From the NCBI RefSeq assembly GCF_963576615.1, contig NC_088717.1, forward strand, positions 57,954,749-58,018,748: 64,000 nucleotides of DNA. Reading direction: 5' to 3'. The translations under genes were made by a program, and so were the position numbers. Within the stretch, counting starts at the first letter, position 1. Every line of letters starts with the position of its first letter. The notes beneath the pieces were generated by a model, which did not search any database, was not told where the DNA came from, and saw nothing but the letters and a program-made list of their open reading frames with translations. Shown one piece after another: positions 10,825 to 62,439 of the stretch. The DNA is from Watersipora subatra. Taxonomy: Eukaryota.

Positions 10825-10960
10825 CAACATGTCTGCCCACCTCTCCCAAACTGTGGAAGTTCCTTCTTCACTCCAAAAGAATTTGCACATTCAAAAGAAA
10901 ACCAATTTTATAGAGAGACCAAAAGTGGAGAAAAAATCTAGAAAGCGAGCAACAACAGAG
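10825..10960 (+). CDS. TEP1: TEP1-like exon B. It contains the candidate start codon at 10829, or it is joined in phase 2 from an upstream exon.
   Basis: The acceptor is ccag|caacATG and the donor is gag|gtttgt. Peptide MSAHLSQTVEVPSSLQKNLHIQKKTNFIERPKVEKKSRKRATTE. Its end phase of 0 matches exon C. Confidence 0.5.
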
Positions 10961-11328
10961 GTTTGTTTACATTTGATTCCATTTAGAGCAAGGTATGACA
11001 ACTATGAGTGACAACATTGAATGACTTGGCATCTACAGCACTACACCTGTTGCACAGGGACCTCGTGTAACATTTATGATTAGTTTTCCAAGGTCATTTT
11101 CTTAATGGTGTCTACTTGAAATCGGATGGATTGCTGTGATCAACTAAATAACTCATTCAAAATCTTGAAATTTGCTTTGGCAGTTTGCACCTAAAACCCA
11201 GACAGGTTTGAACTTTGGTAAAACAGTTTCATTCTAAATGGCTATCAACCTAATCGTCCTGGAGAGTAAATACATTTTTATAACAAGTAATGCAATTAAC
11301 AATCATCTCTTGCACAAACTACCTGCAG

Positions 11329-11487
11329 TTGCTGGAAGACACGTTACCTAAGATGCCAAGGTACAGTCTAGACTGCAGCTCGGTGAGAGTTCCTGGTGAC
11401 GATAAAGAGGTGATGATGGAGTTCACATCTCCACCCTCAGCGGAGCCGGTGCCGGCCCAGAAGACCGATCACCTTGACAAGACCAAG
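11329..11487 (+). CDS. TEP1: TEP1-like exon C
   Basis: Splice sites cag|ttg ... aag|gttcta. Peptide LLEDTLPKMPRYSLDCSSVRVPGDDKEVMMEFTSPPSAEPVPAQKTDHLDKTK, which resembles human MPSYSLSLGEESEVEDLAV. Confidence 0.6.
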
Positions 11488-11796
11488 GTTCTAGTATAGT
11501 TGCTTTTCTGACATACTTGAATTAATTTTCATGCCAAATTAAATGGTTGGTGTTGACGCTAGCTTTGCTGCGATTTTCCGGTAAAAACACATATTCTATT
11601 TGAAGGTATTGAAGCAGCAAGTTGGTGTACTAGCAATTAAATACAGGGTTTACACATGAATGCGAGTGCACTCGGCTACACTTGCTATGGGTGTTTGATC
11701 AGTACACAGCGCAAGGGTTGAAGCTATTTTAGTTTAATTCTTAGTTGCGTGTTTAGGTTGGCAGCAGAGAATGAAATATTTTCCCTTTTTTTACAG

Positions 11797-11931
11797 CGCC
11801 AATTTATCAATGCCATGAGTGCAGCTCTTCTCATGTCACCCAACTTCAAGTGCGTCTCTGATAAAACTCGCACCTCATTTGTCAGCTTGTGTGACAGCAT
11901 CGCTGACATTGATCCAGAGTTCATTCTTAAG
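11797..11931 (+). CDS. TEP1: TEP1-like exon D, the start of the TROVE domain
   Basis: Splice sites tttacag|cgc ... taag|gttggt. Peptide RQFINAMSAALLMSPNFKCVSDKTRTSFVSLCDSIADIDPEFILK. Human has ...ELALLEPEFILK at this point. Confidence 0.7.
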
Positions 11932-12548
11932 GTTGGTATTAGTCGACAGACCTTTCAGTCTGCATCTAAGCATTCATTTTGTTTATTACTGCTCTACAGG
12001 CATTGAGTGTATTTGTATTCTCTCACACTTCAGGCTTTTTACTTAAAAAGGGAATTCCTTGCTGTTTAATTCTGTTCATCTGTTTATCACTCTGTAAGAG
12101 AGATATGGATTAGGAGTTGTGTGCACATTGAGTTGCTGTGTGATAAGTGTTGCAATGGACCCTCACATGTTGCGAACTAATGTGGGCGCTTTATTAAAAT
12201 AAGGATTTTTATGCCAACGGTCATGGCGGCACACTCGGAACTGCTCAACTCAAAATAGTAATGACTAAAGCGTGAAAATGTCTCAATAGTTTGCAAGTAA
12301 CAAAACTCACAGATGTTTGCTTCATTCCATTTTGCGAATGAAAACAGTTTGTATAACTGTTTGCCAAAGGTACGATTTTGTATGATGTAATATGCTGTAA
12401 AATGTTGTCACAACCAGCCGTTGGACAAATCTCGCATTTGCTCAGGCTTGTGCATAATATTCTTTTGCATGAGGAGAGTTTTCAAGTCAATTGACACAAG
12501 ATTGTACATATAAAGAAACGATGCTTGCAGCACCCTATTTATTGCTAG

Positions 12549-12710
12549 GTTGCCATATACAGTCGCAAGGATCTGAACATAAGAGCAGTAAGCAATTTCC
12601 TGCTGGCGGATGCAGCCCATCGTCCTGTATGCAGGCCATTCTTGAAGAAGTACTTCAAAAGTACAGTTATGCTGCCTTCCGACTGGATAGAGGTGGCTGA
12701 GATTTATCAG
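12549..12710 (+). CDS. TEP1: TEP1-like exon E, TROVE domain
   Basis: Splice sites ttgctag|gtt ... atcag|gtctgc. Peptide VAIYSRKDLNIRAVSNFLLADAAHRPVCRPFLKKYFKSTVMLPSDWIEVAEIYQ, which is about 50% identical to human ASLYARQQLNVRNV...LPSDWIQVAELYQ. Confidence 0.85.
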
Positions 12711-12774
12711 GTCTGCCAATTACAATGAATTGTCTCCTCTTGTGCATACATATATTTCTATAAGAAGCTGAAAC

Positions 12775-14815
12775 ACTAAATGTCAGTCTGTAGAGTATCT
12801 GCTGTCAGTCTGTGGAGTATCCGCTGTCAGTCTGTAGAGTATCTGCTGTCAGTTTGTAGAGTATCTGCTGTCTGTCTGTAGAGTATATGCTGTCAGTCTG
12901 TAGAGTATATGCTGTCAGTCTGTAGAGTATCTGCTGTCTGTTTGTAGAGTATCTGCTGTCTGTCTGTAGAGTATCTGCTGTCAGTTTGTAGAGTATCTGC
13001 TGTCAGTTTGTAGAGTATCTGCTGTCAGTCTGTAGAGTATCTGCTGTCAGTTTGTAGAGTATCTGCTGTCTGTCTGTAGAGTATTATGCTGTCTGTCTGT
13101 AGAGTATATGCTGTCAGTCTGTAAAGTATCTGCTGTCTGTTTGTAGAGTATCTGCTGTCTGTTTATAGAGTATCTGCTGCCAGTCTGTAGAGTATTTGCT
13201 CTCAGTTTGTAGAGTATCTGCTGTCAGTTTGTGGAGTATCTGCTGTCAGTCTGTAGAGTATCTGCTGTCAGTTTGTAGAGTATTTGCTGTCAGTTTGTAG
13301 AGTATCTGCTGTCAGTTTGTAGAGTATCCGCTGTCAGTCTGTAGAGTATCTGCTGTCAGTCTGTAGAGTATCTGCTGTCTGTCTGTAGAGTATATGCTCT
13401 CAGTTTGTAGAGTATCTGCTGTCTGTTTATAGAGTATCTGCTGTCAGTTTGTAGAGTATTTGCTGTCAGTTTGTAGAGTATTTGCTGTCAGTTTGTAGAG
13501 TATCTGCTGTCAGTTTGTAGAGTATCCGCTGTCAGTCTGTAGAGTATCTGCTGTCTGTCTGTAGAGTATATGCTCTCAGTTTGTAGAGTATCTGCTGTCT
13601 GTTTATAGAGTATCTGCTGTCAGTCTGTAGAGTATATGCTGTCAGTTAGTAGAGTATCCGCTGTCAGTCTGTAGAGTATCCGCTGTCTGTCTGTAGAGTA
13701 TATGCTCTCAGTTTGTAGAGTATATGCTCTCAGTTTGTAGAGTATCTGCTGTCTGTTTATAGAGTATCTGCTGTCTGTTTATAGAGTATCTGCTGTCAGT
13801 TTGTAGAGTATCTGCTGTCTGTCTGTAGAGTATATGCTCTCAGTTTGTAGAGTATCTGCTGTCTGTTTATAGAGTATCTGCTGTCAGTTTGTAGAGTATA
13901 TGCTCTCAGTTTGTAGAGTATCTGCTGTTTGTTTATAGTGTATCTGCTGTCAGTTTGTAGAGTATATGCTCTCAGTTTGTAGAGTATCTGCTGTCTGTTA
14001 ATAGAGTATCTGCTGCCAGTCTGTAGAGTATATGCTCTCAGTTTGTAGAGTATCTGCTGTCTGTTTATAGAGTATTTGCTGTCAGTTTGTAGAGTATCTG
14101 CTGTCAGTTTTTAGAGTATCCGCTGTCAGTCTGTAGAGTATCTGCTGTCTGTCTGTAGAGTATCTGCTGTCAATCTGTAGAATATCTGCTGTCAGTCTGT
14201 AGATTATCTGCTGTCAGTCTATCAAGTATCCGCTGTCAGTTTGTAGAGTATCTGCTGTCAATCTGTAGAGTATTTGCTGTCAGTTTGTAGACCTTTTGCT
14301 GTCAGTCTGTAGAGTATCCGCTGTCAGTTTGTAGAATATCTGCTGTCAGTCTGTAGATTATCTGCTGTCTGTCTGTAGAGTATCTGCTGTCAATCTGTAG
14401 AGTATCTGCTGTCAGTCTGTAGATTATCTGCTGTCAGTCTGTCAAGTATCCGCTGTCAGTTTGTAGAGTATCTGCTGTCAGTCTGTAGATTATCTGCTGT
14501 CAGTCTGTCAAGTATCCGCTGTCAGTTTGCAGAGTATCTGCTGTCTGTCTGTAGAGTATCTGCTGTCTGTCTGTAGAGTATCTGCTGTCAGTCTGTAGAG
14601 TATATGCTGTCAGTCTGTAGAGTATCTGCTGTCTGTCTGTAGAGTATCCGCTGTCAGTCTGTAGAGTATCTGCTGTCAGTCTGTAGAGTATCTGCTGTCA
14701 ATCTGTAGAGTATTTGCTGTCAGTTTGTAGACCTTTTGCTGTCAGTCTGTAGAGTATCCGCTGTCAGTTTGTAGAATATCTGCTGTCAGTCTGTAGAGTA
14801 TCTGCTGTCTGTTAA
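12775..14815. repeat. Minisatellite, 22 bp unit ctgtagagtatctgctgtcagt, about 92 copies (about 2.0 kb), in the TEP1 intron between exons E and F
   Basis: Direct visual periodicity with minor unit variants (cag/ctg/cca, tatc/tata). Confidence 0.95.
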
Positions 14816-14955
14816 ACATAGTAAAACAAAATATGAATTTGCTTATGAAAACATCAGTTGTGACATTTCTAACTTGTTTCAGTTCACACATAGTATGTAG
14901 AAAACTATTAGTGGTATAGATGTAATTAACGATAGTTATGCTGCAATTTTTTTAG

Positions 14956-15052
14956 ACTTTTCAAGACCACAACTTGAACTTTGGGTCATTGCCAACTGCA
15001 TTGAGGAAAGTTATGGTGGAGAAGTTTGCAGATTTTGACAAGTATCAGCTTG
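14956..15052 (+). CDS. TEP1: TEP1-like exon F, TROVE domain
   Basis: Splice sites ttttag|act ... cttg|gtgagt. Peptide TFQDHNLNFGSLPTALRKVMVEKFADFDKYQL. Human has LPACLRTAMTDKFAQFDEYQL. Confidence 0.75.
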
Positions 15053-15398
15053 GTGAGTAATGGATACTTGCACTGTTGCAAAGGTGTGACTTCTATCTCC
15101 CATGCTTGCACAGTCAATGGCTTTGGTAGTTGTGACATGTGTCAGTCGTTGTGACATGTGTCAGTTGTTATGACACGTGTCAGTTGTCGGGGCATGTGTT
15201 AGCTGTTATGGCATGTGTCAACTGCAGCATTTGTTAGCTGTGTGAGCATGAATTTTATAGCTTGGATTGGCTTTTGCAGTCTGTTGTCACATGAACCGGA
15301 TGTCATGGCATAGGTCACCTGTTGTGGCATGGGTTTCCTGTTGTAGTAATTGAGTTGCCATTATTAATATGTAAGCAGAAGAGACAGCAATAAAATAT

Positions 15399-16168
15399 AC
15401 TAGAAATTCCCCTGCCATACAGCCCACGACCTGATAATGGAATAAGTGATAACGGAAAAAAGAAATGGCAGTGCAGGTTGTTGAAAAAGTAGTTGTCGGC
15501 AGGAATTGGCAGAGTATAGTGTAAATGAAAGTTGTTCGAGATGACATAAAATAAATTTGACATAAAATTAATTTAAGTTGTAAGCCTAACCTACTGTAAT
15601 GTATGTAATTTAAAAACAACAATAAGGAAATATGTTTATTATAACTCTGAAATGCAAAATTAGAAGTAAAATGGCAAGCTACTGTGTACCATACACAGTT
15701 TGAAAGTTGGTTGTGTTGAATGTAGAATGATTTTGATAGTGATCTTTAACAGAAAGCAAGTATGAGCTTTCACGCGTCTGGAAGTTTTCTGCAAACTGCA
15801 GCAAAATAAAAAAATGTTTTCGTCATAATGGGGCATTGTAGTTCGGCCGTGGCTTGTACATAAGTTGTAAAGGATTTCGGCTAACGTTTTAAATAATTTA
15901 ATGAAAACTTTGTGGACAAAAAAACATAGGCTGATAAACTGTGTACCACAATTTCGTACCTGTAAACCGGTCTACGCCTCAAACGGTCTACGTTTATTAC
16001 AGAAACCGTTGTTATACTTTAACGGCTCTACAAAACGATAGTTAAATTTGTTGATGAGATTTCAAAACAAGGGTTTGCGACGTTGTTGATGAATAATTTT
16101 CGTAAGTTGTGTGCACATGCATTTATCATAAAAACTCTCAAACTTCGCTTCGCTTGTTTGGTCGTGGG
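15399..16168 (+). mobile_element. Copy C of the roughly 1.5 kb repeat family, with an internal deletion, inside a TEP1 intron
   Basis: It shares the 5' terminus actagaaattcc(c)ctg(c)catacagcccacgacc and the 3' terminus ...cgcttgtttggtcgtggg. Positions 15590-16170 are collinear with 23700-24590. Confidence 0.75.
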
Positions 16169-16332
16169 ATAAAACTGTAGCTTAAAGCATTCAACAGCGT
16201 GTTTGTCGCTCTTTTTGTTTGTCAGTCATCTCTCCTGTACCGTTCAAATAAGGTAACTCTTCTGCTATACAGGCTACATAAAATATTTAAAAACAATCTA
16301 CTGTTTGTCACTTGGCTGTGTTGGTTTTGCAG

Positions 16333-16419
16333 GAAAATACAACAAGGATAAGAAGCAGACTAAAAGGAAGCCATTGTCCTCTAAAGAGAAAAATAGGATT
16401 GATCGGCATCGGCAGTCAG
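16333..16419 (+). CDS. TEP1: TEP1-like exon G, a basic linker
   Basis: Splice sites tttgcag|gaa ... gtcag|gtgagt. Peptide GKYNKDKKQTKRKPLSSKEKNRIDRHRQS. Human has AKYNPRKHRAKRHPRR. Phase runs 1 to 1. Confidence 0.6.
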
Positions 16420-16499
16420 GTGAGTCCTCAGAGCAATCACCTTGGCTGTTTCCTGTTTCATATGAGGATAAAGCGTGTCCATATGCTTGTCTCATACAG

Positions 16500-16688
16500 G
16501 CATACAACCCTCACAGCTTGTCAGCGATGAGAGCAGTGACGATGAGTCTGAGATACACCTTAAAACCTTCACCCTGAAGCAGCTGATAAGACAACTCCAC
16601 ATCAGCTCGCCAGCTGACAATGTTTTGTGTCTCATTGGCAAGAAGTATCCTCAGACCAGGGAGGAATTTTACAGAATGAAACTGCCAG
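16500..16688 (+). CDS. TEP1: TEP1-like exon G2
   Basis: Splice sites tcatacag|gca ... gccag|gtattt. Peptide IQPSQLVSDESSDDESEIHLKTFTLKQLIRQLHISSPADNVLCLIGKKYPQTREEFYRMKLP. Human has PRFTLKKLVQRLHIHKPAQHVQALLGYRYP...RMKL. Confidence 0.75.
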
Positions 16689-17053
16689 GTATTTATATGA
16701 AGTTATGGAGAGGAGGTAGCTGGTTAATCTTGGAGTTGCTCTCAGACACTTGGATTCCACGCAGTGGCCATGCTCGCTGATGATATTTACATATCAGTAA
16801 AGTTGGCAGCACCCAAAAAACCGTAGATCCAAAGTTTCTGAAATGGGTAAATCTCTACTGAAGCAACAAAAATCTGCAAAATGAGGCCACACTGGTTAAA
16901 ACTGAACATGAAATATTAGCACCATTCCTGCCGTTTGTTGTTGAATGGTGGCGCAAGTTTCTTTGTTGTTTTGGATCACTATAGCATCGATTGTTGGTGT
17001 TGTTAAAGGTTGACTTGCAACAAAATTCGCATTACAGTTATTTGGTATCAAAA

Positions 17054-17866
17054 GGTTCATCATGTTTTACTCTGCTGTGTTGTAGGTGCAAAATACGTGG
17101 AAATGTGATTACAAGCTCATGAAAGCTCAAAAACAAAGTTAATCGCAGCCATTTTGAAAACGCCGTGAATTGGAATCCCTCTCCAAAACGTTTCAAATGG
17201 GACATAGTTAAACACGATGTGCTTCTGTTTACACTTTCATGCAACTTCATTCGTCGAAATCTTTTCACAAATATGCTTCACTCATTCAATAAAACCATGT
17301 CTATTGTCCTCATGCGACTCTTTCATCATCATTGTAATGCTGTCACTTTGAGCACTGATATCTCAAAACCTACCCTAAAAATTAGTTTAATTTATTAACC
17401 TTAGCCCGAAGAAGTGCATATCATCCTCTGATAAACATGAGGAGCCTGTTGATCACCTGTGATAGTCGAAACATGCTGCAGAAATTGTTCGCACCATTTG
17501 GCAAGAAGTATGGGTCACATGATCAGATTACGACTAGATGATTAGACCAAACCAAAATGAATCTGTAAACTAGTGAGCATCTATATTTGATAAGAGTTTT
17601 CTGGTAGAACTCGAAGTGTTTGTCATAAATTAGCACTACGAGACGTTTTATTTTGAACATTTTATTGACCTTTAATTTCACGTGATAACATCATGTGTCA
17701 AAACAATAACCACGTCGCGTTGAGTATGTCATCGAAATAAAAAGATTCCAACCTACGGCGTTTTTGTGATGGATGCGATTACCTGTTTGTTTTTGAGCTT
17801 TTAAGAGCTTGTAATCACATTTCAACATATTTTGGATCTACAACACAGCAGAATAAAACATGGTGA
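17054..17866. mobile_element. Foldback / TIR element, about 810 bp, with terminal inverted repeats of about 100-110 bp, intronic
   Basis: Positions 17054-17165 are the reverse complement of 17750-17866. For example ggttcatcatgttttactctgctgtgttgtaggtgcaaaatacgtggaaatgtgattacaagctc matches the reverse complement of gagcttgtaatcacatttcaacatattttggatctacaacacagcagaataaaacatggtgaacc. Confidence 0.7.
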
Positions 17867-19652
17867 ACCTTTTAATATCAAATAACTTTAATGTGAATCT
17901 AGTTGCAAGTCAAACTAACAAATTTATTGTCCAATCAAATGCAAGCTTCAATTATGCCTTACAGAACTAAATTGAGCATGGTCGAAGTTGGTTGGTTGCA
18001 GGTCTTCAAGGTTCTGTTACTTAGCTGCCTTATTCAACTGAAGCTTTTGAAACCAAAAGCTTACCTTTTTGTGTGGCCCCTCCCTTAAGCTATACCCTAG
18101 GACACTTATGTATTCGCCTCATCTAACTTTCGCATTTTCGCGGAGTCTTTCTCTCGCGAAAGTTTCATGTGCGAAACTAAACTATCATAACGAACGAGCG
18201 AAAACGCGAAATTAAATAGCTTTGTTCATTGATAGTCCAAGAAACAAATGGCAGCAAGCTATCAAATTGCATTATCGACCTCGCCCACACCATTCTACCT
18301 GCGGTTCACAATTACAAACTAGTCCCAATTGAATTTTTTTTTTATCGGTGAACTAGGCCCGTATTCCCTGGGGCAGCTGGCCGGCTGAGCCGTCCCAACT
18401 TTTTAGGAGCTTTCCGCGGCTAAGTACAGTCAAACTCGGATAGCTCGCCCTCGGATAAAATGTAACATTTCATCTCAAACACAAGGTTAACTCGAACGGA
18501 TTTGTTTGGTCCGTTCCCACGCAATGATAAATTGCTTCAGATAACTCGACCTCAACATCATTTATTCGAAAAGCTATTTGCCCAACGGCTATGGAGACGG
18601 TTTTTATCGCTGTAGAATATCACTTTATTCGAAGCCATAGAGACAAACATCAACTTTTAGTAGTTCTTAGGCGTCATTATTATCATCATCAGTAGCAAAA
18701 TATTCTTGTTAACGACCTTTATAAAGGTTTGCAAAATATCAAGTTTTACCAAACATCAGCTTGGCCATAAACTTCCGTATGAACTTAAAATAAAATCGGC
18801 AAAATTGATGTTTGTTAAAACGCTCAAAAGAAAAAGATGTCTTTTTTCTGAGCGTTTTAACTGCGGTCAAGTTTTGCCTATTTTAATTTAAAAATATCTC
18901 GTCAGTCACATCACTTAAAACAAAACTAATCTCACAAAAATAGAAAAATGTTGATACTTTCCGATAAAATTTTTTAAAACTTCACATGAGAGGCCCAGCT
19001 GAGGCCTACATAAGAAAAACCTGTTGGGGGCTTACACCGCCCCTCAACACTCCCAGGTGTTCATAACTAGTCGCCTAACATTAGCCGCCCCAACTTGCAA
19101 CCAGTGAATGCAGGCCTGCAGTGAACTGAACCTGAGGAATCTAATTATGTTTGTTCCACTGCATTTATTTTCACATCACTATATTTTTGCACTCATCAGA
19201 GCTGCGAAATTAAGGTGCAGTGAAATTTTACTCTGTATGCTACTCACGAAACTAAATACTAGCGAAATATAAGTGTCCTAGGGTATGTAGTGTTTCAGGG
19301 CCTGACTTTCAGGCTATGCCTTTTAGACTCATTATTATGGAATAATGTTTAATAGGAGAGTTTGATGAGATGCAAGCTGGAAAAAGGATGCGGCTGCCCA
19401 TTCCTGAAACCTGGGAGACGCAAGTATCACTCAGGGGAAACAAGGCAGAAGTATGGGAATCGCTAATAGGTGAGCTGGTTATTACTGACAGATGTCGGTG
19501 GGTATAGTGGTTAGTGCAGGTCAACTGAATTAGTTAATGGGGTGTGAGTTAGTATTACTAGCGGTAACTAGTAGGTAAGTCGGTAGTACCGATGGTAACT
19601 GATAAATTAGTCAGGTGGTACTGATAGTACTTGAGTTAAGTGCTTCTCCTAA

Positions 19653-19976
19653 GGCTGGTTCACACTATATCACCTTTTTCAGCTCTGTCCTCGGTGATTA
19701 TTCATCGACCATGTGCATTGTCAACTGACGGTATCGTCGATGCGACGATTTCCTGATAGTTTTTCAAGCATCCACAGCAGTCTGTGCAATGTGTAACACT
19801 TTGGTAATGGTGATTGGTCATCACAGATTGCTTGATCCATATCTTCATGGCAGTTGCTGTGAGACTGCATAGTATAATGAGAAGGCTTAGCCACGGATTA
19901 TTCACGGATGGAAACATTGTTCTCACAGACGATCACCGAAGTGTTGTGTGATTAATACTGATATAGTGTGAACCAG
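19653..19976. mobile_element. MITE copy 1, about 324 bp, with TIRs ggctggttcacactatatc and gatatagtgtgaaccag
   Basis: Perfect 17 bp terminal inverted repeat. The internal motif gacggtatcgtcgatgcgacgatttcc is shared with copy 2. It lies in a TEP1 intron. Confidence 0.75.
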
Positions 19977-20212
19977 TCTCTAGCAACTGAGAAGTTAACC
20001 AAGTGTAATTTAGAGTTTTTGATAGCTCAGTGAATTGCTGCTGTTCTATAATCACAGAGTGGTTTAAGTTTTTTAAAGGTCCCAAGTACTGTTTGAAGGG
20101 CTACTATAGTAATTTTCCTGTTGCAGCTAAGTTTTGCGAGCCTACAGTTAATGTCTTCTAATACTAATAGCTGCTTTACCAATACTACCAATTACTTGTG
20201 ATGAATATACAG

Positions 20213-20413
20213 ACCACAGAAAGCTGCCCTTCATGGCTATGTTGAGAAACATACGAAACATGCTAAAGGCTGGTATCTCTGAAAAGCACCATCAGTGGGT
20301 CATCGGCAAGTTGACTGATGAAGGAGCAATAGCTAATAGCAAGCAATTTCCCTTCAGATTTTTCTCTGCTTACGCAGTCCTGACTGAACTCGACTCTGAC
20401 TACGACAAATACC
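20213..20413 (+). CDS. TEP1: TEP1-like exon H
   Basis: Splice sites tatacag|acc ... tacc|gtaagt. Peptide HRKLPFMAMLRNIRNMLKAGISEKHHQWVIGKLTDEGAIANSKQFPFRFFSAYAVLTELDSDYDKY. Human has GKLPFMAMLRNLCNLLRVGISSRHHELILQRL...SRQFPFRFLNAHDAI. Confidence 0.8.
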
Positions 20414-22084
20414 GTAAGTCCACATCTTTGCTTGTTTTTATGCCACCCAACAAATTAGGATTGCTCTCTAGAAATCAGGAGCCATGGCATTTGTGAGAAA
20501 TTATGCATTTGAAAATATACGCATGTCTTGAGTTGCATTATTTTCTGTTAACTGAAATGTTGTGTAAAGAAGTTTGGAGGCAAATTAACCACCGCTGGTA
20601 TCTTGCTCTTAAATGTATCTGTTAGTTCTGTCAGGACTATTGTAGGAGGTCTGAAGATTAAAAGTAGTTGTGAAGTTCTCAGGTTCGAATGAGTCAGCTG
20701 ATTTAGCAGAACTGAACTAGCAGTGGACTGTCGATGAAAAAATATACTTGGTTTTTTTTCTGTTAAGTTACCCTATCAGGGGGATGTGCAGACGTAAACC
20801 CAAAGTTTGGAAAGTTGTTGATGATATGAATAAGCTGCTAGCTTGAACAGTAATATACCGTAATAGTGGTTTCAACAACATTCTTCATTTGAACTAAGTG
20901 TTGGTCTACATGTTTAAGTTTGTGATGGTTGAAAGTTCGCAAGTATTTGTTTGACTTGTGGTTTTTGATCATTTTATTTATCACAAAAAATAATTTCAAC
21001 GTGAGATAGTTCGCACCATAGACCTATTAACTATACTATAGTTAATAGTTCTATGGTTATATATAGTATAGTTATATATAGTGTAGTTAATAGGTCTATG
21101 GTTCACACAGACTACCAGTTAGAAAAGACTCTGCTGTTCAAATTATTTCACCATTTTAACATTGTTGTCTGAGTTAGTGACCTTATTGCAAAAGTAATTT
21201 GCTTTCATAAAAGTAGTCATGCTTGTCAATTTTTGTGCAAATGCTGTACATTGATGATATGGAATCATTCTAGGTTGAGGGCTTGTAACAGAAAAACTTT
21301 GCCAGGGTAATACAGTGGAACCTCTATTTACAAAAGACTCAACACGCAAAATTTTTTAGTTGCAAAATGTCTTGTGGTAAATGATTTGCGTTGACTTACG
21401 AAGGATATTTCTAGATATGAAAAGCTGAAAGGCCTTTTGTATTTTGGTCTGTTTGTTTGTTTCATGTTTTGGCCTGTTTGCTTTACGTGGGTACGACATA
21501 CCGCTTATCTTACTCAGTTCATTAATAACGAAAATCAGTAAATGACAAGTGTTGTTTTCATTTGTTGTATAATTTTGAGTTATTGCTTATCACATACAGA
21601 GTAGGACAACTTTAGTTTTCAGCAATTTAATTTCTGATGATGACATGGTTTTTCAGTTCATGCCGAAGTAAATAAATATTTTTCCTTACTGTCTTAGAAA
21701 ATTTATTCTGAGCAACACATGAAATAACAATATAACATCCACCTCTTCTGACTGCCACCCACTTCCACATTCCACGATCTTCGCTCAGCGTCGTCCATAC
21801 GACCAACATAAAAAGTAAACAAACAAACATACCTTTAGTAGTTGTTATTTTTTATTTCTCTGTTCTATCTTCTTTCCAAGTGTGCTTTTTTATTTATTAC
21901 TTAGTAATATAATTATAACATGCATTTGTTATAGGTTTTTATCATTATATGTATTTATAATTTATATAAATGTTATTTCCGAGTGTTGTGGGAGCTTGGA
22001 ACGAATTACAGAACTTATATGGTAAAATCGGTTTCGACACAAAATTTTCTACTTACGAAGCGGCTTCCTGCAAGAATCTATTTT

Positions 22085-22265
22085 GTAAGTGAAGGTTCCA
22101 CTGTAAGCAGATGTTCCACTGTAAGCAGAGGTTCCACTGTAAGCAGAGGTTCTACTGTAAGCAGAGGTTCCACTGTAAGTAGAGGGTCCACTGTAAGTAG
22201 AGGTTCCACTGTAAGTAGAGGTTCCACTGTAAGTAGAGGTTCCACTGTAAGCAGATGTTCCACTG
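22085..22265. repeat. Tandem repeat, 18 bp unit gttccactgtaagcagag, about 10 copies
   Basis: Visual periodicity. It gives rise to the stop-free ORFs at 21983-22336 on both strands. Confidence 0.9.
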
Positions 22266-22638
22266 TTAAGTGTATACAATATAATAAATTCTGCTAGGCC
22301 AGCAAATTTAGTATATGCACAGGTCATGGACGACAATGTGCATGTGTTACAAAGGCCATATGTAGGTCACGTGTAGGTTACGTGTAGGTCATGTGTAGGT
22401 CATATGTATGTTGTGAACAAGTTGAAAATCATCTAGCGATCAAATACAAGGTTTTGAAAATTGCTAAAGCATGAAAATAAGTCTTCTTCTTATTTTCATA
22501 GAGTTCTCAGCAATCGTTTTACAAAGTTAAAGCTCTTGAACCATAAACAGGGAGAATGTTATGAGTTTTGTTATGATTCCAGCATAATTATAATCACAGT
22601 TTGCAGCTGTTGAAAGTGCACGCATTCATTGCATACAG

Positions 22639-22786
22639 AAGAAAAGCTGATATCTCTGGCGACTAAGCTGGAAGACGCGGCCAACAAGGAAGAGTCACAG
22701 CTTGGTTATAAACGCAGAAAGAAGAAAACAAAAGAGCAGCGGCGATCTGATCAAAAGAAAAACGGGATGAGGAAGCAGTTGAAACA
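22639..22786 (+). CDS. TEP1: TEP1-like exon I, basic region
   Basis: Splice sites catacag|aag ... aaaca|gtgagt. Peptide EKLISLATKLEDAANKEESQLGYKRRKKKTKEQRRSDQKKNGMRKQLK. Phase runs 1 to 2. Confidence 0.55.
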
Positions 22787-23063
22787 GTGAGTTCAGGGTT
22801 TTTAGATACCAACTATCGGGTAAGGAGTGGGGTGGGTTTGCATCCTGAAACTCTGTGCAAAGTTACAATGGTTATGTGAATTGCTAAACTTGTGTGTGCT
22901 AGTGAATGTCACTCTTTTACATAGACATCTGAATAAAACAACTCGTATGATTATCAGTTATAAATATTGTAAAGGATTCGCTGCTTTGCTTCTCCAGACT
23001 TGAGCGAACCAGCCACTTTGAGTTGAGAGAATAAATATATTTAATCAATAGTGATAATAATCA

Positions 23064-49049: not shown

Positions 49050-49214
49050 TCCGTAGGAGGGGTATCTCTAACACCCCAAACCAATATATCTCAAGCTCAC
49101 GCTGATTGGATAACCTGTCTCTCTTGGTCGGATTCTGTACAACAGTTGGCTTCAGGGTCTAATGACTGCGTTGTCAAGTTGTGGGACTTTACAAAGTCTG
49201 CTCCACCTACTGAC
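49050..49214 (+). CDS. TEP1: TEP1-like exon AJ, WD40
   Basis: Splice sites tcctgcag|tcc ... actgac|gtacgt. Peptide SVGGVSLTPQTNISQAHADWITCLSWSDSVQQLASGSNDCVVKLWDFTKSAPPTD. Confidence 0.85.
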
Positions 49215-49484
49215 GTACGTAGTATATTTTATGGTGATGAAGTATGTGTGGCCATGATATAGTATTTCTAGCAATTAAGTGAGATACAAAGCAATGATTA
49301 TACTTACAACATTGCTAGCCTAGTACTAGAATTCAGCTTATGGTTAATTATCTTATGGACGCAGAACTTCAAAGACATAGTGGGTAGGCAAAGTTGCAAC
49401 ACAAAGTAGTTTTGGAAAAATCATGCGCAAATGGCCGAGTCTACAATTCATTATAACTAAGTCTTTGCCCTAGCTCTATTAGCA

Positions 49485-49925
49485 TGTACATGTCAGGAAT
49501 TTATAATCCATCAGTTTGCCTGTACACCACATCTGTTTGCCTGTACATTATATTTGTTTGCCTGTACATCATATCTGTTTGCCTGTACATCATATCTGTT
49601 TGCCTGTACATCACATCTGTTTGCCTGTACATCACATCTGTTTGCCTGTACATCATATCTGTTTGCCTGTACATCATATCTGTTTGCCTGTACATTATAT
49701 CTGTTTGCATGTACATCATATATGTTTGCCTGTACATCATATCTGTTTGCCTGTACATATTTGGCTTGTGCAAACATTAGAATTAGTGAATCGATTTAAA
49801 CCGCTTGATCGTATGTGTACTAACATATGTACTGCCATGTGTACTAACATGTGCACTAACATGTGCACTAACACATGTGTACTAACACATGTACTAACAT
49901 GTGTACTGACATGTGTTGTTTACTC
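49485..49925. repeat. Two arrays. A 21 bp unit tctgtttgcctgtacatcata in about 13 copies runs from 49485 to 49760. A 12 bp unit atgtgtactaac in about 9 copies runs from 49800 to 49925.
   Basis: Visual periodicity. It generates the spurious multi-frame ORFs at 49484-49950. Confidence 0.95.
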
Positions 49926-51370
49926 TGAACATGCATTGCCGGCTTTCTAGGCTACTGAATAAAACATGTTGTATTAATTGTAGTGACTGTAATTACTTTT
50001 GAGAAGTTTCCTGCAGTTTGAACTCCTAAATGTTGGCAAAAAGTAGAAGTAATTGGTTCAGCTGTTATGGATTAAAGCATGTCTTTTATTCTGAGGCATT
50101 TAATTGGTTCAGCTGTTATGGATTAAAGCATGTCTTTTATTCTGAGGCATTTATTAGTCTGCTTAGGCTGGTTTTTAACAAATCTTTATATGAACTCGAT
50201 AGATAGATTTGCACACCGGCCAACCTGGAGTTTTATGACGATGAAATACGACTGTATGAACTCGATAGATAGATTTGCACACCGGCCAACCTGGAGTTTT
50301 ATGACGATGAAATACGACTGACTACTAAGCGTAGCTCAGACCTCAGATAGAGTTCTATGAAAGAGCTAGCAAACAAGCAACTATCGTGCATCTGCAGTAG
50401 CAATCTTACAAAATATAAAATTCATGGACTTGAGCAATTGGCGATGATAAGCTTGCAGCTAAAAATATGTAAGTGTTAGAGGTGGTTGTGACATTCTGTC
50501 ACCTCCATTTCTGTTCTGCTGCTTATTCTTTTGCCTCGCTTTGCTGAATTCAAATGGTTCTAATATTTTTTCAATTCGCAATTCAACATGTAGTCTGCTG
50601 TACTAAAATTATTGCTTGACAGCATTATAAGAAAAATAAGTTAAGCTAAAACAATGGCTAAATCAAGTAGTATCTCATTACAATGCCCTCCTTACTACAT
50701 TGTGACATTTATATATAATGACTTTCTCTATCTTTCTTAATGTGACATCCCAGGTGGTTCACTTTCAATTTTCATCCCCAAGGGCTCGGCGAAAAAAGCA
50801 CGTTTTAGGGGTGTTTTTGGTGGCCAGACACTCTAGAGTGTTTTCCTAAAAAAGGGTATGTGTTTTTAGCTTGGTGCAGTGGATAGGGGCCAAATCTGTC
50901 TCATTGAGTTCCACACCGTGTAAAGGGGTATTCATGAGCAAAAAAGGGGGCAATTAGTCTGTAGTGATAAAGTGATAAGGGGTAGGTTTGTATTAATGTG
51001 TAAGTCAGTGGAAAGGGTGCATTTTATAACATCTCAGACTAGCTCTAGGGGATGTATAGAAGAGAGTGAACTCCCTGGGTGTGACATGCAAGGACCTCTT
51101 CTTTGCACTTGTTGTGTCGTGTGCAATGACTTGCTCACTAGATATCCCGTGTCATATACTAGAACCTCCTCTGTACATTTCTTAATGTACAAAGACCTCT
51201 TATTGGCAAGGTGTGATATGCTTCATGAATTACAAGCCGTATTGTCTGTTGATCACGGATGACACACAAAGTTCTCTGTAACTCGAATCAAATGGCTGTG
51301 CAAAGCTTACAGCATCTAGAAAACTTTTTGTATCGTTATTGGTTACTGTACGAGTTTTGATTGGTTGCAG

Positions 51371-51546
51371 GCTAAACATGAGCTCAAGGGACACGGTGCC
51401 GCCATCACCTCCGTCTCGTACAAAGCAGGCTGTATCGTCTCTGCTGCTATGAACGGAGAGTTCAAGGTATGGAGTCATAAGGGAAGTGAAGTCACATCTG
51501 TCAAATGCAAATCGGGAGCTTTGAATGCCTGCTCGTTGGGAATACG
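51371..51546 (+). CDS. TEP1: TEP1-like exon AK, WD40
   Basis: Splice sites ggttgcag|gct ... atacg|gtgagt. Peptide AKHELKGHGAAITSVSYKAGCIVSAAMNGEFKVWSHKGSEVTSVKCKSGALNACSLGI. Human has LGHQSAVSAV...DGTLKVWDHQGVELTSIPAHSGPISHC. Confidence 0.85.
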
Positions 51547-51784
51547 GTGAGTTGTTGCGTCGAGTTTAACAACCTCTGTTGGAGAAATGAAACCTTAACA
51601 AGTGAAAAAGTGGATTTTCTTTATGATACTCTATTGTAAGCTCATTTGGCAATAAATCATTCCTGCCTTTTCATGTATTTCAATATTTATGTTCTTGAAT
51701 ACAATGTGCTGTAAACACCTAAAAGTATACCCAACAATAATGGTGCATTTATTTTGTGACGATGACAACATTTGTATACTTTAG

Positions 51785-51999
51785 AATGGCATCCAAGGGT
51801 GGTGACGAGGCCACACCAGACTGGGTGAGTCAGATGGATTGGGACGATGTAGAGAGTAGTAAGCCCAAGGCTGCCACAAGTAAGGCAAAATCAGACATTC
51901 TGAAGGAGGTGTTGGTTGCGATTGGCTCTACAGATGGAGAAGTTCAGCTTTGGCAGCCACTCAAAGCCAATGAACAGGAAGAGTTCATCAGCACGTCAA
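51785..51999 (+). CDS. TEP1: TEP1-like exon AL, WD40
   Basis: Splice sites tactttag|aat ... gtcaa|gtcagt. Peptide MASKGGDEATPDWVSQMDWDDVESSKPKAATSKAKSDILKEVLVAIGSTDGEVQLWQPLKANEQEEFISTS. Confidence 0.7.
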
Positions 52000-52074
52000 G
52001 TCAGTGTATTTGCTGCCGTCAGCAGTCAACAGCCTTATTTACATGCCTACTTATTATATATGTAGGTGTATTTT

Positions 52075-52300
52075 ATTGTAGCTACATGTACATGTAGGTT
52101 TACTCTATTGTAGCTACATGTAGGTGTACTCTTCTGTAACTACATGTAGGTGTACTCTATTGTAACTACATGTAGGTGTACTCTAGGGTAACTACATGTA
52201 GGTGTACTCTAGGGTAACTACATGTAGGTGTACTCTATTGTAACTACACCTAGGTGTACTCTATTGTAACTACACGTAGGTGTACTCTATTGCTTTGCTC
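52075..52300. repeat. 26 bp tandem repeat, ctacatgtaggtgtactctattgtaa, about 8 copies
   Basis: Visual periodicity, directly after exon AL. Confidence 0.9.
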
Positions 52301-52499
52301 GCCCTTTTAGCTCAGCTAATATTGAGAACTATGATTAGTTGCATATTTTCTACAAGACTTATTTTACTCACAAAGTTCAAATTGGGTCAATTTTAACCTG
52401 TTACAACCTGTTGTGGTATGCCGCCAGCCAAGATACATGGACATAGCCCATATACATACTACTGCTGGTTAGACTATGAACTACATTTTGGCATTACAG

Positions 52500-52682
52500 G
52501 TGCCCTTTCTGTCTGTAATAATTCTAACAGACTGGTATCCACCCACCTCGATGAGTCAGTACGGATGTGGACCCTTCCTAGCGCAAAGCAAGTGAAGGCT
52601 AGCACAGAGAGATCAGTGGACCTGAAGCCTAACTACAACCAGATAACGCAGATTGCTGAAACTGAGATGTTTCTTCTTGCTG
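52500..52682 (+). CDS. TEP1: TEP1-like exon AM, WD40
   Basis: Splice sites cattacag|gtg ... ttgctg|gtgagc. Peptide ALSVCNNSNRLVSTHLDESVRMWTLPSAKQVKASTERSVDLKPNYNQITQIAETEMFLLA. Human has GPVRAAAVSETSGLMLTASEDGSVRLWQVPKEADD. Confidence 0.75.
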
Positions 52683-53016
52683 GTGAGCTATATAGCTAGG
52701 TATTCACATTATAGTGACTAAAGATGGTGGCGCGGGTAAACTTGTTTTTAGAGATTACAAAAGTTCAAGCACCTAGACTACAATGTGCTTGCACAGGTGA
52801 TACCAACTACCGGTAACTGGAGGAATTGTGTTTCCATGATCACTTGGGTCTCCTTACCCGGAGAAGAGTTCTCCTACCAAGTAAAGCTTCATTTAAATTG
52901 TGACCTTGGAGTTTACATAATCTATGTTAAATCATCCCCAGTGTTGTGCACGTTTAATAACACTTGTAGGGTTTGATTGACTGTAAAGTCTTAAGGTTTT
53001 ATATTGTCCTTTTCAG

Positions 53017-53249
53017 GCTCATTTGATGGAAGCTTAGCTGTGTGGCGTCGCACTGAAGGACGCCCCATTTGGCTCCGTCAGATTAACTGCAGTTCCACAG
53101 CTATATCTGCTATCAATGTACCTTTGGAGGACAAGCTTCCTATGAAGATATTTGTTGGTGCAGAAGACGGCACGTTGGCTATTGTAAATCTGAACTGGGA
53201 CGGTGCAAGAGTTTGGCTAGACCTGCTTAGTTCTACCCAGGAATGTCCG
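53017..53249 (+). CDS. TEP1: TEP1-like exon AN, WD40
   Basis: Splice sites cttttcag|gct ... gtccg|gtacgt. Peptide SFDGSLAVWRRTEGRPIWLRQINCSSTAISAINVPLEDKLPMKIFVGAEDGTLAIVNLNWDGARVWLDLLSSTQECP. Confidence 0.75.
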
Positions 53250-53955
53250 GTACGTACTTCATAAGCATGTAAATGATATGGCAATGGTACAGGTGCTGGT
53301 ATACGACTGACACGTAACTGTTAGACTTTAACTTGCCGTGTATGACATGCTCCTCACGGCTCTATGACCACCATTTGACAATAATGCATAGCTGATGATT
53401 ATGTTGATGAATGGTTGACGTATGGCTGGTACCCGACTGACACAAAACCTTCTAATGATTGACATCATGTCTGATGTATGATCAGCGCATAAATAATCTC
53501 TGATCGGGACATGACTGATGCATGATTGGGACATGACTGGTGTATGATCGGGACATGCCATATGTATGTTTGGGTCATGACTGATGCATGATCGACATGC
53601 AACCGCTTCATGATCGGCGTGTGATCGGCTCATCTAAAGCTCTAGCTTTCAAAAGGTTTCTGTGTTAGTATTTTCATGCTGAGTTCTTCGCGTTATTGGT
53701 AAACCAAGTGGTTATAAAGTCTCGGACTGAGAGCGCGCAACATTACTGGCACCTGATGAATAATTTGCGTTATCTGCTGTTGTATCAGGATATTCTTTTT
53801 GACTACCAATTTTGTTTAAATTTATATTCACAATTTTGAATTAAACTTATAATGTAAGAGACATGTCATGCAGTATAATGAAGTAATAGTGAAGTAATAC
53901 CCTAGTGTATTGGTGTATGAAATAGCCTTAGCACCTAAGCTCTTGTTTGTAGCAG

Positions 53956-54057
53956 AATGCAGACTCTGTCAGAAGCCGCCCCATTGTAAGCATCCAAATT
54001 GACAGGACATCTGAGGAAATTGGTCTTATATTTGGTGACCACAGAGGACTTAGCCTG
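53956..54057 (+). CDS. TEP1: TEP1-like exon AO. An alternative acceptor lies 3 nt upstream.
   Basis: Splice sites ttgtagcag|aat ... gcctg|gttagt. Peptide NADSVRSRPIVSIQIDRTSEEIGLIFGDHRGLSL. It is in frame and stop-free. Homology is weak. Confidence 0.45.
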
Positions 54058-54613
54058 GTTAGTTACTAAATGATTAGACTACTAGGGGTGTCGCATTAAT
54101 AATTACTAGTTTAAATACCTGTGTAACACTCATCTGGATTCTCTAAAGTCCCATCTCGAGCTACTTGTAGATTGCTGAGAACTAAATTTATATAGACTGG
54201 TGCAATGGCATGGTTTTACCTAACTAGTCAATTCACTCTGTGTAATTTCGTCTAAAGCTTTTGACTGGCTATGTATAAGGGATCAGTCTAGCATGTTCGT
54301 GTCCTTATTCTAGAAGTTAGTCAAAATGTATCCACCTACAACAGTGTCATGTAACATCTACACATGCCCATGCATCTTCTCATCCGCACGCATTTGGTGA
54401 CAGCTTGTCTTCACGATGCCTCTTGTGATTGTTTTTCAAGTATTCCAATGTTTATTCAGTAGGTTTCCTTTCATGGCTGCAAGCTTTAGTTCATCAGATC
54501 TTCTGTACCATTCTCATCTAACATTATATATCTTCTACGGTATTTAACTTAAAAAACAATTATAGGTTTTCTTCATAGAAACATGTTCAAAAAAAGAAAA
54601 TGTTTTACTTTAG

Positions 54614-54700
54614 GGCTCTGCAAATGACAAGACTCTCTCTATGAAGGGCAGCTGCAGCTATGCGCTTAGGATGAACATCAGTGAAATCAAAACTCTAAAG
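54614..54700 (+). CDS. TEP1: TEP1-like exon AP
   Basis: Splice sites tactttag|ggc ... ctaaag|gtgaga. Peptide GSANDKTLSMKGSCSYALRMNISEIKTLK. Confidence 0.45.
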
Positions 54701-55096
54701 GTGAGACGCCTTTATTCTCACTCTTTAGCTTCCTTGAGAGCTTTTCGTTAACATTTCTTAACAGTTTTCTTAACATTTCTCCATGTTGTATATCTCTACT
54801 GATTACTGTATACTTCTCACCATCTGTAGGGCTGCTAAGCTTTATATCAGAATATAAAACAAACCATGTGATCCTGCCTAGATTCTTCAATTAGCAATAG
54901 CCTGTGATCCAGGCTTCTTAAACTTGAGATTCTTGCTTCGTACCAAACTCTGTCTTCTTCAAAAATTCTCATGCTTGTTTTATCGAACCTGACATAGTGA
55001 AAAGCTAAATTCCTTCAAGGGAAATTTGTTGAAACTAGCTGAGGCCTATTGCACTGATGCTAACATGGTGACAGCAATCTGTTAGTATGTTTCTAG

Positions 55097-55339
55097 GCTT
55101 ATGAACTGAGCAAAACCCTCGATGATGGAGAATTGATAACAAGCTGCGCTTCTTCATCATTTGTCTGCACAGGAACAAGCAAAGGTCGGGTTCTATTGAG
55201 CTCTAAAGAGCATGTGCAGCAGCGCATGCAGGCTCATAACATGAGAGTCACCTGCCTCATCATCGTTGACAGAATTCTTATTTCTGCTGGAGCGGACTCA
55301 TTTGTTAAGCTGTGGAGGGTTGATCACAATGGTTTCCAG
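55097..55339 (+). CDS. TEP1: TEP1-like exon AQ, WD40
   Basis: Splice sites tttctag|gct ... ttccag|gtaaat. Peptide ...ITSCASSSFVCTGTSKGRVLLSSKEHVQQRMQAHNMRVTCLIIVDRILISAGADSFVKLWRVDHNGFQ. Human has SGSVTALHVLPELLVTASKDRDVKLWERPSMQ. Confidence 0.75.
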
Positions 55340-55364
55340 GTAAATGGCTGTTGACATACATTGT

Positions 55365-55810
55365 AACCAGTAACCAGCAGTACACTTGTAAGTACACTTC
55401 ATCTTTCACTTAGCATCGTGTCTGTACATAGACTAAACTATAACCAGTAACCAGCAGTACACTTGTAAGTACACTTCATCTTTCACTTAGCATCGTGTCT
55501 GTACATAGACTAAACCATAACTAGTAACCAGCAGTACACTTGTAAGTACACTTCATTTTTCACTCAGCATCGTGTCTGTACATAGACTAAACTATAACCA
55601 GTAACCAGCAATACACTTGTAAGTACACTTCATCTTTCACTTAGCATCGTCTCTGTACATAGACTAAACTATAACCAGCAGTACACTTGTAAGTACACTT
55701 CATCTTTCACTTAGCATCGTGTCTGTACATAGACTAAACTATAACCAGTAACCAGCAGTACACTTGTAAGTACACCTCATCTTTCACTTAGCATCGTGTC
55801 TGTACATAGA
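55365..55810. repeat. About 75-80 bp tandem repeat, about 5 copies (aaccagtaaccagcagtacacttgtaagtacacttcatctttcacttagcatcgtgtctgtacatagactaaacta)
   Basis: Visual periodicity. It starts about 25 nt after the exon AQ donor. Confidence 0.9.
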
Positions 55811-56001
55811 CTAAACTAACCTACAGATTGGAAGCGCATTTACATTCTAACTGATCTACCGACGGCCATGCTTGGTCGATTGTTCTATGATGTTACTGTA
55901 AACGAAAACTAAATCCATTTCAGTGTTCTATGAACAACTATTAATGCTTTCAACGGTGCTGCAATGTGACATTCTTTCCTAAAATCTATATTGTATTACA
56001 G

Positions 56002-56145
56002 CTGCTGAGCAAGCATATAGCCTTGGCTCCAGTTACCAGCTTATCATGCAGTGGGGTCAACAACCTACAAGCTAACAGACCTGTATATGAAGTGTATTGT
56101 GGAGACGTTCTTGGTGGGGTACACAGACTTGATTTCCATCTCTAA
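56002..56145 (+). CDS. TEP1: TEP1-like terminal coding exon, with stop TAA at 56143-56145
   Basis: The acceptor is gtattacag|ctg. Peptide LLSKHIALAPVTSLSCSGVNNLQANRPVYEVYCGDVLGGVHRLDFHL*. Human C-terminus is LLGLFRCEGSVSCLEPWLGANSTLQLAVGDVQGNVYFLNWE*. Confidence 0.7.
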   Translation: MLSKHIALAPVTSLSCSGVNNLQANRPVYEVYCGDVLGGVHRLDFHL

Positions 56146-62390: not shown

Positions 62391-62439
62391 CCCTAAGTTA
62401 ATTTAAAGTTTATGTAGGTTAGACAAGCTCTGTATCTTT

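Follow-up and report, generated by a model that had tools for sequence, protein, structure and literature searches.

We are confident that the 64,000-nt stretch of contig NC_088717.1 from Watersipora subatra analyzed here (the window; G+C 39%, no ambiguous bases) carries an intact and probably expressed gene for TEP1 (telomerase protein component 1, also termed vault-associated), a subunit of vault particles with RNA-binding, NADase, and NTPase functions; the encoded protein has ~2,437 residues. On the forward strand between approximately 10.8 and 56.1 kb, many short protein-like open stretches are separated by non-coding DNA that is rich in tandem repeats. In our curated model, 46 exons extend from 10829 to 56145 with GT-AG signals at every junction, and the coding sequence of 7,314 nt (2,437 residues) has no internal stop codons. 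The gene is uninterrupted, contains the complete set of TEP1 domains, and has the catalytic and nucleotide-binding residues in place. An earlier reading of the same DNA (the original prediction) had also named TEP1, and the domain content, the domain order, the best relatives, and the two TEP1-specific propeller profiles, PF25047 and PF25048, all agree with that identification.

The domains of the model protein follow the order TROVE, vWA-like (DUF5920), DUF4062/NIR, NACHT, an APAF1-type helical domain, and then an estimated 20 or so WD40-like blades, counted from sequence, in three propellers. The Pfam matches, each of which exceeds its curated cutoff, are listed below by residue of the model protein.

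Residues 82-508: TROVE (PF05731), 353.6-356.9 bits, E 3e-105 to ~1e-105, profile positions 5-442 of 442 in a single stretch
Residues 539-713: DUF5920, vWA-like (PF19334), 40.2 bits, cutoff 27
Residues 741-826: DUF4062 (PF13271), 42.9 bits, cutoff 24.7
Residues 1004-1162: NACHT (PF05729), 33.9 bits, cutoff 26.7
Residues 1345-1474: APAF1_C helical (PF17908), 43.4 bits, cutoff 22.8
Residues 1802-2032: Beta-prop_TEP1_2nd (PF25047), 180 bits, cutoff 89, E 5e-53
Residues 2356-2434: Beta-prop_TEP1_C (PF25048), 95 bits, cutoff 32, E 3e-27, profile positions 1-72 of 73

Matches to generic WD40 families are also numerous. A chance match is ruled out by the E values for TROVE (3e-105), PF25047 (5e-53), and PF25048 (3e-27). 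TROVE, NACHT, and WD40, which are among the profiles with which the original prediction was to be checked, were all matched in the concatenated translation. The vWA-like fold it described was recovered as DUF5920 in exons 12-14, and the Walker A (GEMGIGKT) and Walker B (LIIMIDGLD) motifs are intact and align with those of the homologues. TROVE is present as proposed but extends over exons 2-11 and not over three exons; the WD40 array is likewise confirmed, with a count closer to 20 than to the proposed minimum of 14. The TEP1_N repeats (PF05386) gave no match in the model protein at E <= 0.1, which is to be expected and does not refute the identification, because among the database matches PF05386 was restricted to mammalian TEP1.

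Relatives were searched for among 5.8 billion proteins. The best of these relatives are annotated as TEP1 and are 29-41% identical; they come from Branchiostoma belcheri, Elysia marginata, Solemya velum, sharks, and mammals. In addition, 12 TEP1 proteins used as tblastn queries gave colinear matches along the gene. Two signatures specific to TEP1, KxLDESPFNNQM and NPLYLxLACEELR, are aligned with their counterparts in the homologues. The protein P0241 ("telomerase protein component 1", 2,090 residues) was aligned by BLASTP over its residues 1-2089 with residues 380-2436 of the model, in one high-scoring segment pair (HSP) with 30% identity and 901 bits. That HSP runs from the end of TROVE to the last propeller and helps to make it extremely improbable that the model has fused two neighboring genes, a TROVE-vWA gene of the p80/Ro type and an NWD1-like NIR-NACHT-WD40 gene. 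TROVE-only "telomerase p80-like" proteins and TROVE-less NIR-NACHT-WD40 proteins do both exist, and the two halves would meet at the exon 14/15 junction, which spans a 1.1-kb intron. However, TROVE, DUF5920, DUF4062, and NACHT are found together in one protein in many homologues, and the reading frame is kept over the exon 14/15 junction with no need for a stop or start signal.

The gene model was constructed with a purpose-written dynamic-programming exon chainer, independently of the model in the original prediction. Codons were scored by log-odds, for which tblastn-supported segments served as training data, and splice sites by generic donor and acceptor matrices; repeats were masked, homology earned a bonus, and open frames and split codons were checked. 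The raw output of 47 GT-AG exons was reduced to 46 by curation against homologues. The exons are 38-284 nt long (median 152), and the 45 introns are 80-2,667 nt long (median 588). All of the features in the following list are on the forward strand; percentages are amino acid identities.

Exon 1, 10829-10960: residues 1-44, with a putative ATG at 10829, the first of its open frame; ab initio, no homology; donor GAG/gtttgt
Exon 2, 11329-11487: residues 45-97; ab initio; the Pfam TROVE match starts at residue 82; first-pass alternative ATG at 11290
Exon 3, 11797-11931: TROVE; tblastn from TEP1 homologues, best E 8e-9
Exon 4, 12549-12710: TROVE (VAIYSRKDLNIR...AEIYQ); tblastn, 57-67% to TEP1 proteins
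Exon 5, 14956-15052: TROVE; tblastn, 57-62%
Exon 6, 16333-16419: Lys-rich insert in TROVE; ab initio, required for frame, inside the Pfam TROVE envelope; followed by an 80-nt intron
Exon 7, 16500-16688: TROVE; tblastn, 41-61%; donor fitted to the homologue junction
Exon 8, 19356-19469: TROVE; tblastn, 55-78%
Exon 9, 20213-20413: TROVE (KLPFMAMLRN...); tblastn, up to 73%; 57% to P0241
Exon 10, 22639-22786: charged linker within TROVE; ab initio, length of 1 modulo 3 needed for frame; 16% to P0241
Exon 11, 25070-25250: end of TROVE; tblastn; 51% to P0241
Exon 12, 25649-25867: DUF5920, vWA-like; tblastn, PF19334
Exon 13, 26317-26462: DUF5920, vWA-like (IDNVIVLSDG...); tblastn, PF19334
Exon 14, 26581-26817: DUF5920, vWA-like; tblastn, PF19334; 44% to P0241
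Exon 15, 27946-28122: start of DUF4062/NIR (FISSTFLDMHGERD), with L749; PF13271, PDB 11gz_A; 60% to P0241
Exon 16, 28814-29047: NIR core, with R817 (28878-28880) and the catalytic E849 (28974-28976); aligned to human TEP1 through 11gz and gorilla TEP1
Exon 17, 29304-29397: NIR; aligned to 11gz_A, weak to P0241
Exon 18, 29503-29540: NIR, 38 nt, the least certain internal exon; ab initio, restores the frame jointly with exon 17
Exon 19, 31658-31778: end of NIR (YPASWAGV...LEMF); tblastn, 11gz alignment
Exon 20, 32047-32229: NACHT with Walker A GEMGIGKT (motif at 32197-32226); Pfam, homologue alignment
Exon 21, 32818-32972: NACHT; chainer, Pfam, P0241 comparison
Exon 22, 33086-33233: NACHT with Walker B LIIMIDGLD (33147-33173); tblastn, homologue alignment
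Exon 23, 34653-34832: NACHT (KALDESPFNNQ), TEP1-specific signature kept; tblastn
Exon 24, 35793-35885: NPLYLMLACEQLRF; tblastn, 53-63%; 71% to P0241
Exon 25, 36891-37023: winged-helix/helical region; tblastn with P0016
Exon 26, 37253-37436: helical region; weak, 21% to P0241
Exon 27, 38266-38443: APAF1_C-type helical domain; PF17908
Exon 28, 39404-39624: APAF1_C-type helical domain; PF17908, P0241 comparison
Exon 29, 39854-40112: end of helical domain and first WD40 blade; tblastn with P0016, blade profile E 1e-13
Exon 30, 40356-40480: WD40; blade profile E 7e-14; 50% to P0241
Exon 31, 40909-41049: WD40; blade profile E 2e-13
Exon 32, 43039-43147: WD40; chainer, P0241 comparison
Exon 33, 44421-44540: WD40; blade profile E 9e-16; 52% to P0241
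Exon 34, 45608-45706: WD40; blade profile E 1e-14
Exon 35, 46137-46420: WD40, start of the second TEP1 propeller; PF25047
Exon 36, 46828-46961: second propeller; PF25047 match unbroken over the junction
Exon 37, 48734-48882: second propeller; blade profile E 5e-17, PF25047
Exon 38, 49050-49214: second propeller; blade profile E 3e-18, PF25047
Exon 39, 51371-51546: second propeller; blade profile E 3e-14, blade-by-blade match with P0241
Exon 40, 51785-51999: WD40 with an acidic/Lys-rich loop; P0241 comparison
Exon 41, 52500-52682: WD40; blade profile E 1e-9 and 7e-7
Exon 42, 53017-53249: WD40; chainer, P0241 comparison
Exon 43, 53956-54057: divergent blade; 24% to P0241
Exon 44, 54614-54700: divergent blade; 21% to P0241
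Exon 45, 55097-55339: WD40, start of the C-terminal TEP1 propeller match; blade profile E 1e-15, PF25048
Exon 46, 56002-56145: last coding exon, TAA at 56143-56145; PF25048 at the C-terminal end, P0241 aligned to its penultimate residue
AATAAA, 56306-56311: candidate polyadenylation signal, 161 nt past the stop

Much of what the original prediction had set down about the structure of the gene was reproduced in this independent model. The nine peptides that it quoted all occur on the forward strand, in the order given, between 12549 and 35867: VAIYSRKDLNIR starts at 12549, LPSDWIEVAEIYQ at 12672, IDNVIVLSDG... at 26317, FISSTF at 27965, DMHGERD at 27986, GEMGIGKTAF at 32197, LIIMIDGLD at 33147, DESPFNNQ at 34809, and NPLYLMLACEQLRF at 35826. 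The exon that it placed at 32047-32229 was recovered to the nucleotide as exon 20, the stop codon and the AATAAA approximately 160 nt downstream lie at the same positions, and the frame is kept across all junctions. Our count is 46 exons where the prediction has 47, and judging from its lettering at least three exons differ. By that lettering, the prediction has one exon fewer than our model before the exon with FISSTF and two more after the exon with NPLYL, and the near-equality of the counts is therefore partly a coincidence. The putative ATG is at 10829, not at 10825, and the description of the gene as complete-looking applies from TROVE to the stop codon, whereas exons 1 and 2 and the start codon lack support from homologues.

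Several candidates from the chainer were not retained. An additional 3' exon (donor at 56113, exon at 56421-56602) was dropped because PF25048 and P0241 both align up to the end of the frame at 56145. The exons at 16500-16715 and 20171-20413 were too long and were replaced with 16500-16688 and 20213-20413 on the basis of homologue junctions and overlapping tblastn HSPs. A 12/60-bp repeat at 34845-35068 was taken as coding in the first pass and was dropped once the repeats were masked. This array begins 13 nt past the exon 23 donor and is open in all three forward frames.

The model was also searched for WD40 exons that might have been missed, using a hidden Markov model of the blade that was built from the repeats of this gene. 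Every significant match lies within the modeled exons, and the best match in the introns has an E value of ~0.6. A relaxed tblastn search with P0241 found no match in the long introns. The gaps at 41-43, 49-51, and 53-55 kb, where the original prediction suggested that exons might be missing, conceal no WD40 exon, and that at 41-43 kb consists almost entirely of a 26-bp array of 59 copies. A missing blade was suspected at the exon 38/39 junction, where BLASTP left a 45-residue gap, and then at 36/37; both suspicions were rejected, the 45-residue gap being an artifact of alignment register. PF25047 aligns in one continuous stretch over both junctions. A missing blade is made unlikely by three results: there is no intronic WD40-like open reading frame, the blades can be matched one for one on inspection, and the PF25047 match to the model is unbroken, while it is P0241 that has an insertion of ~50 residues in a linker.

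The FISSTF and DMHGERD peptides are present as the original prediction stated, although it did not recognize them as the start of the DUF4062/NIR domain. This region aligns with the solved fragment of human TEP1 (PDB 11gz_A) with an E value of 1.7e-32 over 206 residues. The small exon 18 supplies ...VFDG ahead of YPASW, where human TEP1 is six residues shorter in the 11gz alignment. The DUF4062 (NIR) domain of human TEP1 is a TIR-like NADase with E1008 as its catalytic residue and an active site lined by R908, R954, and R976; the R908A and R976A mutations lower the activity, and neither was reported to abolish it (bioRxiv 10.64898/2026.05.01.722283 and 10.64898/2026.09.04.749371). In the Watersipora protein, E849 occupies the position of E1008 and R817 that of R976, and both are invariant in an alignment of 14 sequences. 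The position of R908 is occupied by L749 (codon 27983-27985), and a leucine is also found there in P0009 and P0016. The position of R954 is occupied by G795, where all of the other aligned sequences have lysine or arginine; the G795 codon is split across the exon 15/16 junction (28122/28814), adjoining a 78-bp array. Since the catalytic glutamate and the counterpart of R976 are kept and R908 and R954 are replaced, the aligned residues suggest that the enzyme is probably active, with active-site surroundings that differ from those of the human protein. With two arginines replaced, the NADase activity may be lower or otherwise regulated.

The leucine at the R908 position, being common to only a subset of the relatives (P0009 and P0016), could also be taken as a sign that the genome has several TEP1-like genes and that this one is a lineage-specific paralogue, with the same domains and a possibly diverged role, and not the one-to-one orthologue of vertebrate TEP1. 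The best named match, B. belcheri TEP1, is only ~41% identical overall, and a second Branchiostoma TEP1-like protein (P0060) among the matches indicates that at least one invertebrate lineage has multiple TEP1-like genes. Even so, we consider a paralogue unlikely: all of the domains that define TEP1 are present, including PF25047 and PF25048, there is no sign of duplication in the window, and the identity levels fit plain divergence between phyla.

Tandem repeats make up a large part of the introns. The gene has 27 arrays with a combined length of 9.5 kb, which is 25% of all intron sequence, and 8 of these arrays have an end no more than 25 nt from a splice junction, compared with an expected 3.5 (P ~0.02 from 5,000 random placements, a post hoc comparison). 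In three of the 27 arrays the unit straddles the border between exon and intron, and the splice signal is part of it. Such arrays have been called mirages in amphioxus (PMC3087553), and we adopt that definition. The three mirage arrays, which were read copy by copy in register, are as follows.

28446-28835, forward strand: 78 bp x 5, the 3' end of intron 15 and the first 22 nt of exon 16; five copies of the acceptor
32220-32532, forward strand: 39 bp x 8, the last 10 nt of exon 20 and the donor GTATAG; eight copies of the donor
35657-35796, forward strand: 35 bp x 4, the exon 24 acceptor and the first 4 nt of the exon; four copies of the acceptor

At exon 16, the last copy of the acceptor alone yields the homologous protein. 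The penultimate copy would add 26 in-frame residues, and the earlier copies run into stop codons. A purine-rich GA/G array (29050-29146) begins 3 nt past the donor of the same exon. The amphioxus mirages, in Adh3 and the globin genes, and the variable number tandem repeat in intron 7 of human F7, a further precedent (PMC1557585), likewise multiply a splice site by means of a unit that spans the boundary, and in those arrays it is, as in these it would be, the copy joined to the remaining exon that gives the correct product. The TEP1 gene differs in having three such arrays in one gene, two of which are inside the NADase/NACHT coding region. Because the 78-bp unit corresponds to 26 codons, the array could be imagined to supply length-polymorphic alternative 3' splice sites, with 26-residue inserts in the BB-loop region of the NADase, and, together with the loss of R908 and R954, to tune or gate the TEP1 NADase in this lineage. 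We regard this joint reading, in which the arrays would not be neutral, as very unlikely. If true, it would mean that the NADase is tuned by a mechanism not seen in mammals. The minisatellites that duplicate splice sites are a curiosity with known precedent.

Several of these observations weigh against an intact, expressed TEP1 gene. The additional splice-site copies in the three minisatellites could cause aberrant splicing, and the leucine and glycine in place of R908 and R954 depart from the human active site. Exons 1 and 2 and the start codon come from ab initio prediction, and the tail of 97 residues that precedes TROVE compares with 180-300 residues in the homologues. For exons 10, 17, 18, 26, 43, and 44, similarity is weak and the placement follows mainly from frame and splice-site logic. 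The gene was read from genomic DNA alone, which bears on whether it is expressed, and the view of its vault partners (MVP and the vault RNA) is confined to this window. A search with the N-terminal 330 residues of 12 homologous proteins matched nothing upstream of 11746; upstream exons would not be detectable by homology because the homologues diverge too far in their N-terminal tails. Three speculative upstream exons from the chainer (7674-7764, 8284-8439, and 9516-9712) are unsupported and were not adopted.

Some of the same points would suit an unprocessed pseudogene, recently inactivated or unexpressed and still intact in appearance: the reading from DNA, the quarter of the intron sequence that is unstable minisatellite with three arrays duplicating splice sites, and the loss of two active-site arginines from the NADase. 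We regard such a copy as highly improbable, however: the coding sequence of 7.3 kb in 46 exons has no stop or frameshift and has GT-AG at every junction, it keeps the catalytic glutamate, Walker A and B, and the family signatures, and similar arrays are reported to leave normal splicing undisturbed in amphioxus (PMC3087553). The original prediction had judged the gene to be probably functional, and the intact NTPase motifs and the lack of any stop or non-canonical splice site bear this out.

The flanks of the TEP1 gene contain two other elements, both on the reverse strand. Upstream, at ~913-6341, there is a decayed retroelement with a G+C content of ~50% and several frame breaks, which retains an RT_RNaseH_2 domain (3189-3602, 101 bits) and a CCHC-like gag piece near 5253-5561; no pair of long terminal repeats of at least 80 nt was found in 1-10800. 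Downstream, at ~58336-63686 and continuing past the right edge of the window, a GH27 alpha-N-acetylgalactosaminidase-like gene is represented by its 3' half and faces TEP1 tail to tail; it matches Melibiase_2 with 206 bits, and its best relatives are 50-62% identical to it. The introns of this gene contain a 28-bp array of 67 copies (60514-62378), which accounts for the strong AT skew over that interval, and a 100-bp array of seven copies (62446-63163). Positions 588-794 of a 1.2-kb Logan contig (SRR25569779) match a GH27 exon at 59330-59536 of the window with 90% amino acid and 78% nucleotide identity (P0207). This contig is the closest sequence found and, judging from these identities, probably comes from a related species. 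No Rfam family, including the vault RNA, and no tRNA was found in the 64-kb window.

In PMC3762200, TEP1 is termed ubiquitous among Metazoa and Amoebozoa, and insects, fungi, and probably also plants are said to have lost their vaults. TROVE or TEP1-like proteins of spiders, a barnacle, an ostracod, a centipede, and the nematode Plectus sambesii are among our matches, and TROVE-only "p80-like" proteins are numerous. In the original prediction, insects and nematodes were said to lack TEP1, which is only partly right. The matches include no insect, but for nematodes the statement may need to be qualified because the Plectus protein shows 48% identity in the TROVE core. The prediction also held that a resolved invertebrate model would be useful. 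It is a modest resource, but invertebrate TEP1 itself is not new, with TEP1 or TROVE proteins on record for amphioxus, molluscs, spiders, a barnacle, and other invertebrates. The result is the correct identification of an ordinary gene in a widely conserved animal family, a useful and unsurprising model, and it leaves existing knowledge unchanged, since annotations of TEP1 exist for many invertebrates and the protein has been called ubiquitous in Metazoa.

TEP1 has recently become of greater interest, as the 2026 preprints show an active TIR-like NADase in the vault and a design like that of an APAF-1-type immune switch. By analogy with mammalian TEP1, the TROVE and vWA-like module would bind small structured RNAs, namely the vault RNA and the telomerase RNA, and would anchor the protein inside the vault particle. 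The NACHT domain and the WD40 propellers may form an APAF-1-like STAND switch, in which the propellers are thought to sense a signal, the NACHT domain would oligomerize, and the clustered NIR NADase domains would be activated. This activation model was proposed for TEP1 in bioRxiv 10.64898/2026.05.01.722283 and 10.64898/2026.09.04.749371. For the Watersipora protein, we infer RNA binding, vault docking, and NADase switching by homology. The curated intron positions and the residue-level map of the NADase and NTPase are a modest resource for studies of the evolution of vaults and NLR-like proteins, and the gene provides an example of variation at two arginines that flank a conserved catalytic glutamate.

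Human TEP1 is 2,627 residues long, compared with 2,437 in the present model. The order of the domains is identical in human and mammalian TEP1 (UniProt Q99973), including the PF25047 and PF25048 propellers, and the human protein shares the catalytic glutamate, R976, the Walker motifs, and both signatures, LDESPFNNQM and NPLYL; identity to vertebrate TEP1 is ~29-31%. In contrast to the mammalian proteins, the Watersipora protein lacks the PF05386 repeats, has a shorter N-terminal tail, and has leucine in place of R908 and glycine in place of R954. The TEP1 proteins of B. belcheri, E. marginata, and S. velum are 36-41% identical over the N-terminal half. P0241, which is of metagenomic or metatranscriptomic origin, is colinear over 2,057 residues, blade for blade, but has a linker insertion of ~50 residues in the second propeller that is absent here. 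None of these invertebrate relatives, P0241 included, is close enough to be from the same species or genus. NWD1/NWD2 and APAF-1 share the STAND logic of an N-terminal effector, an NTPase, a helical domain, and WD40 sensor propellers, but are without the TROVE and vWA-like RNA-binding module, and APAF-1 carries a CARD instead of NIR; purified human NWD1 and NWD2 showed no NADase activity (2026 bioRxiv preprint). Tetrahymena p80 and Ro60 share TROVE followed by a vWA-like fold, whereas the NIR, NACHT, and WD40 parts are absent from both.

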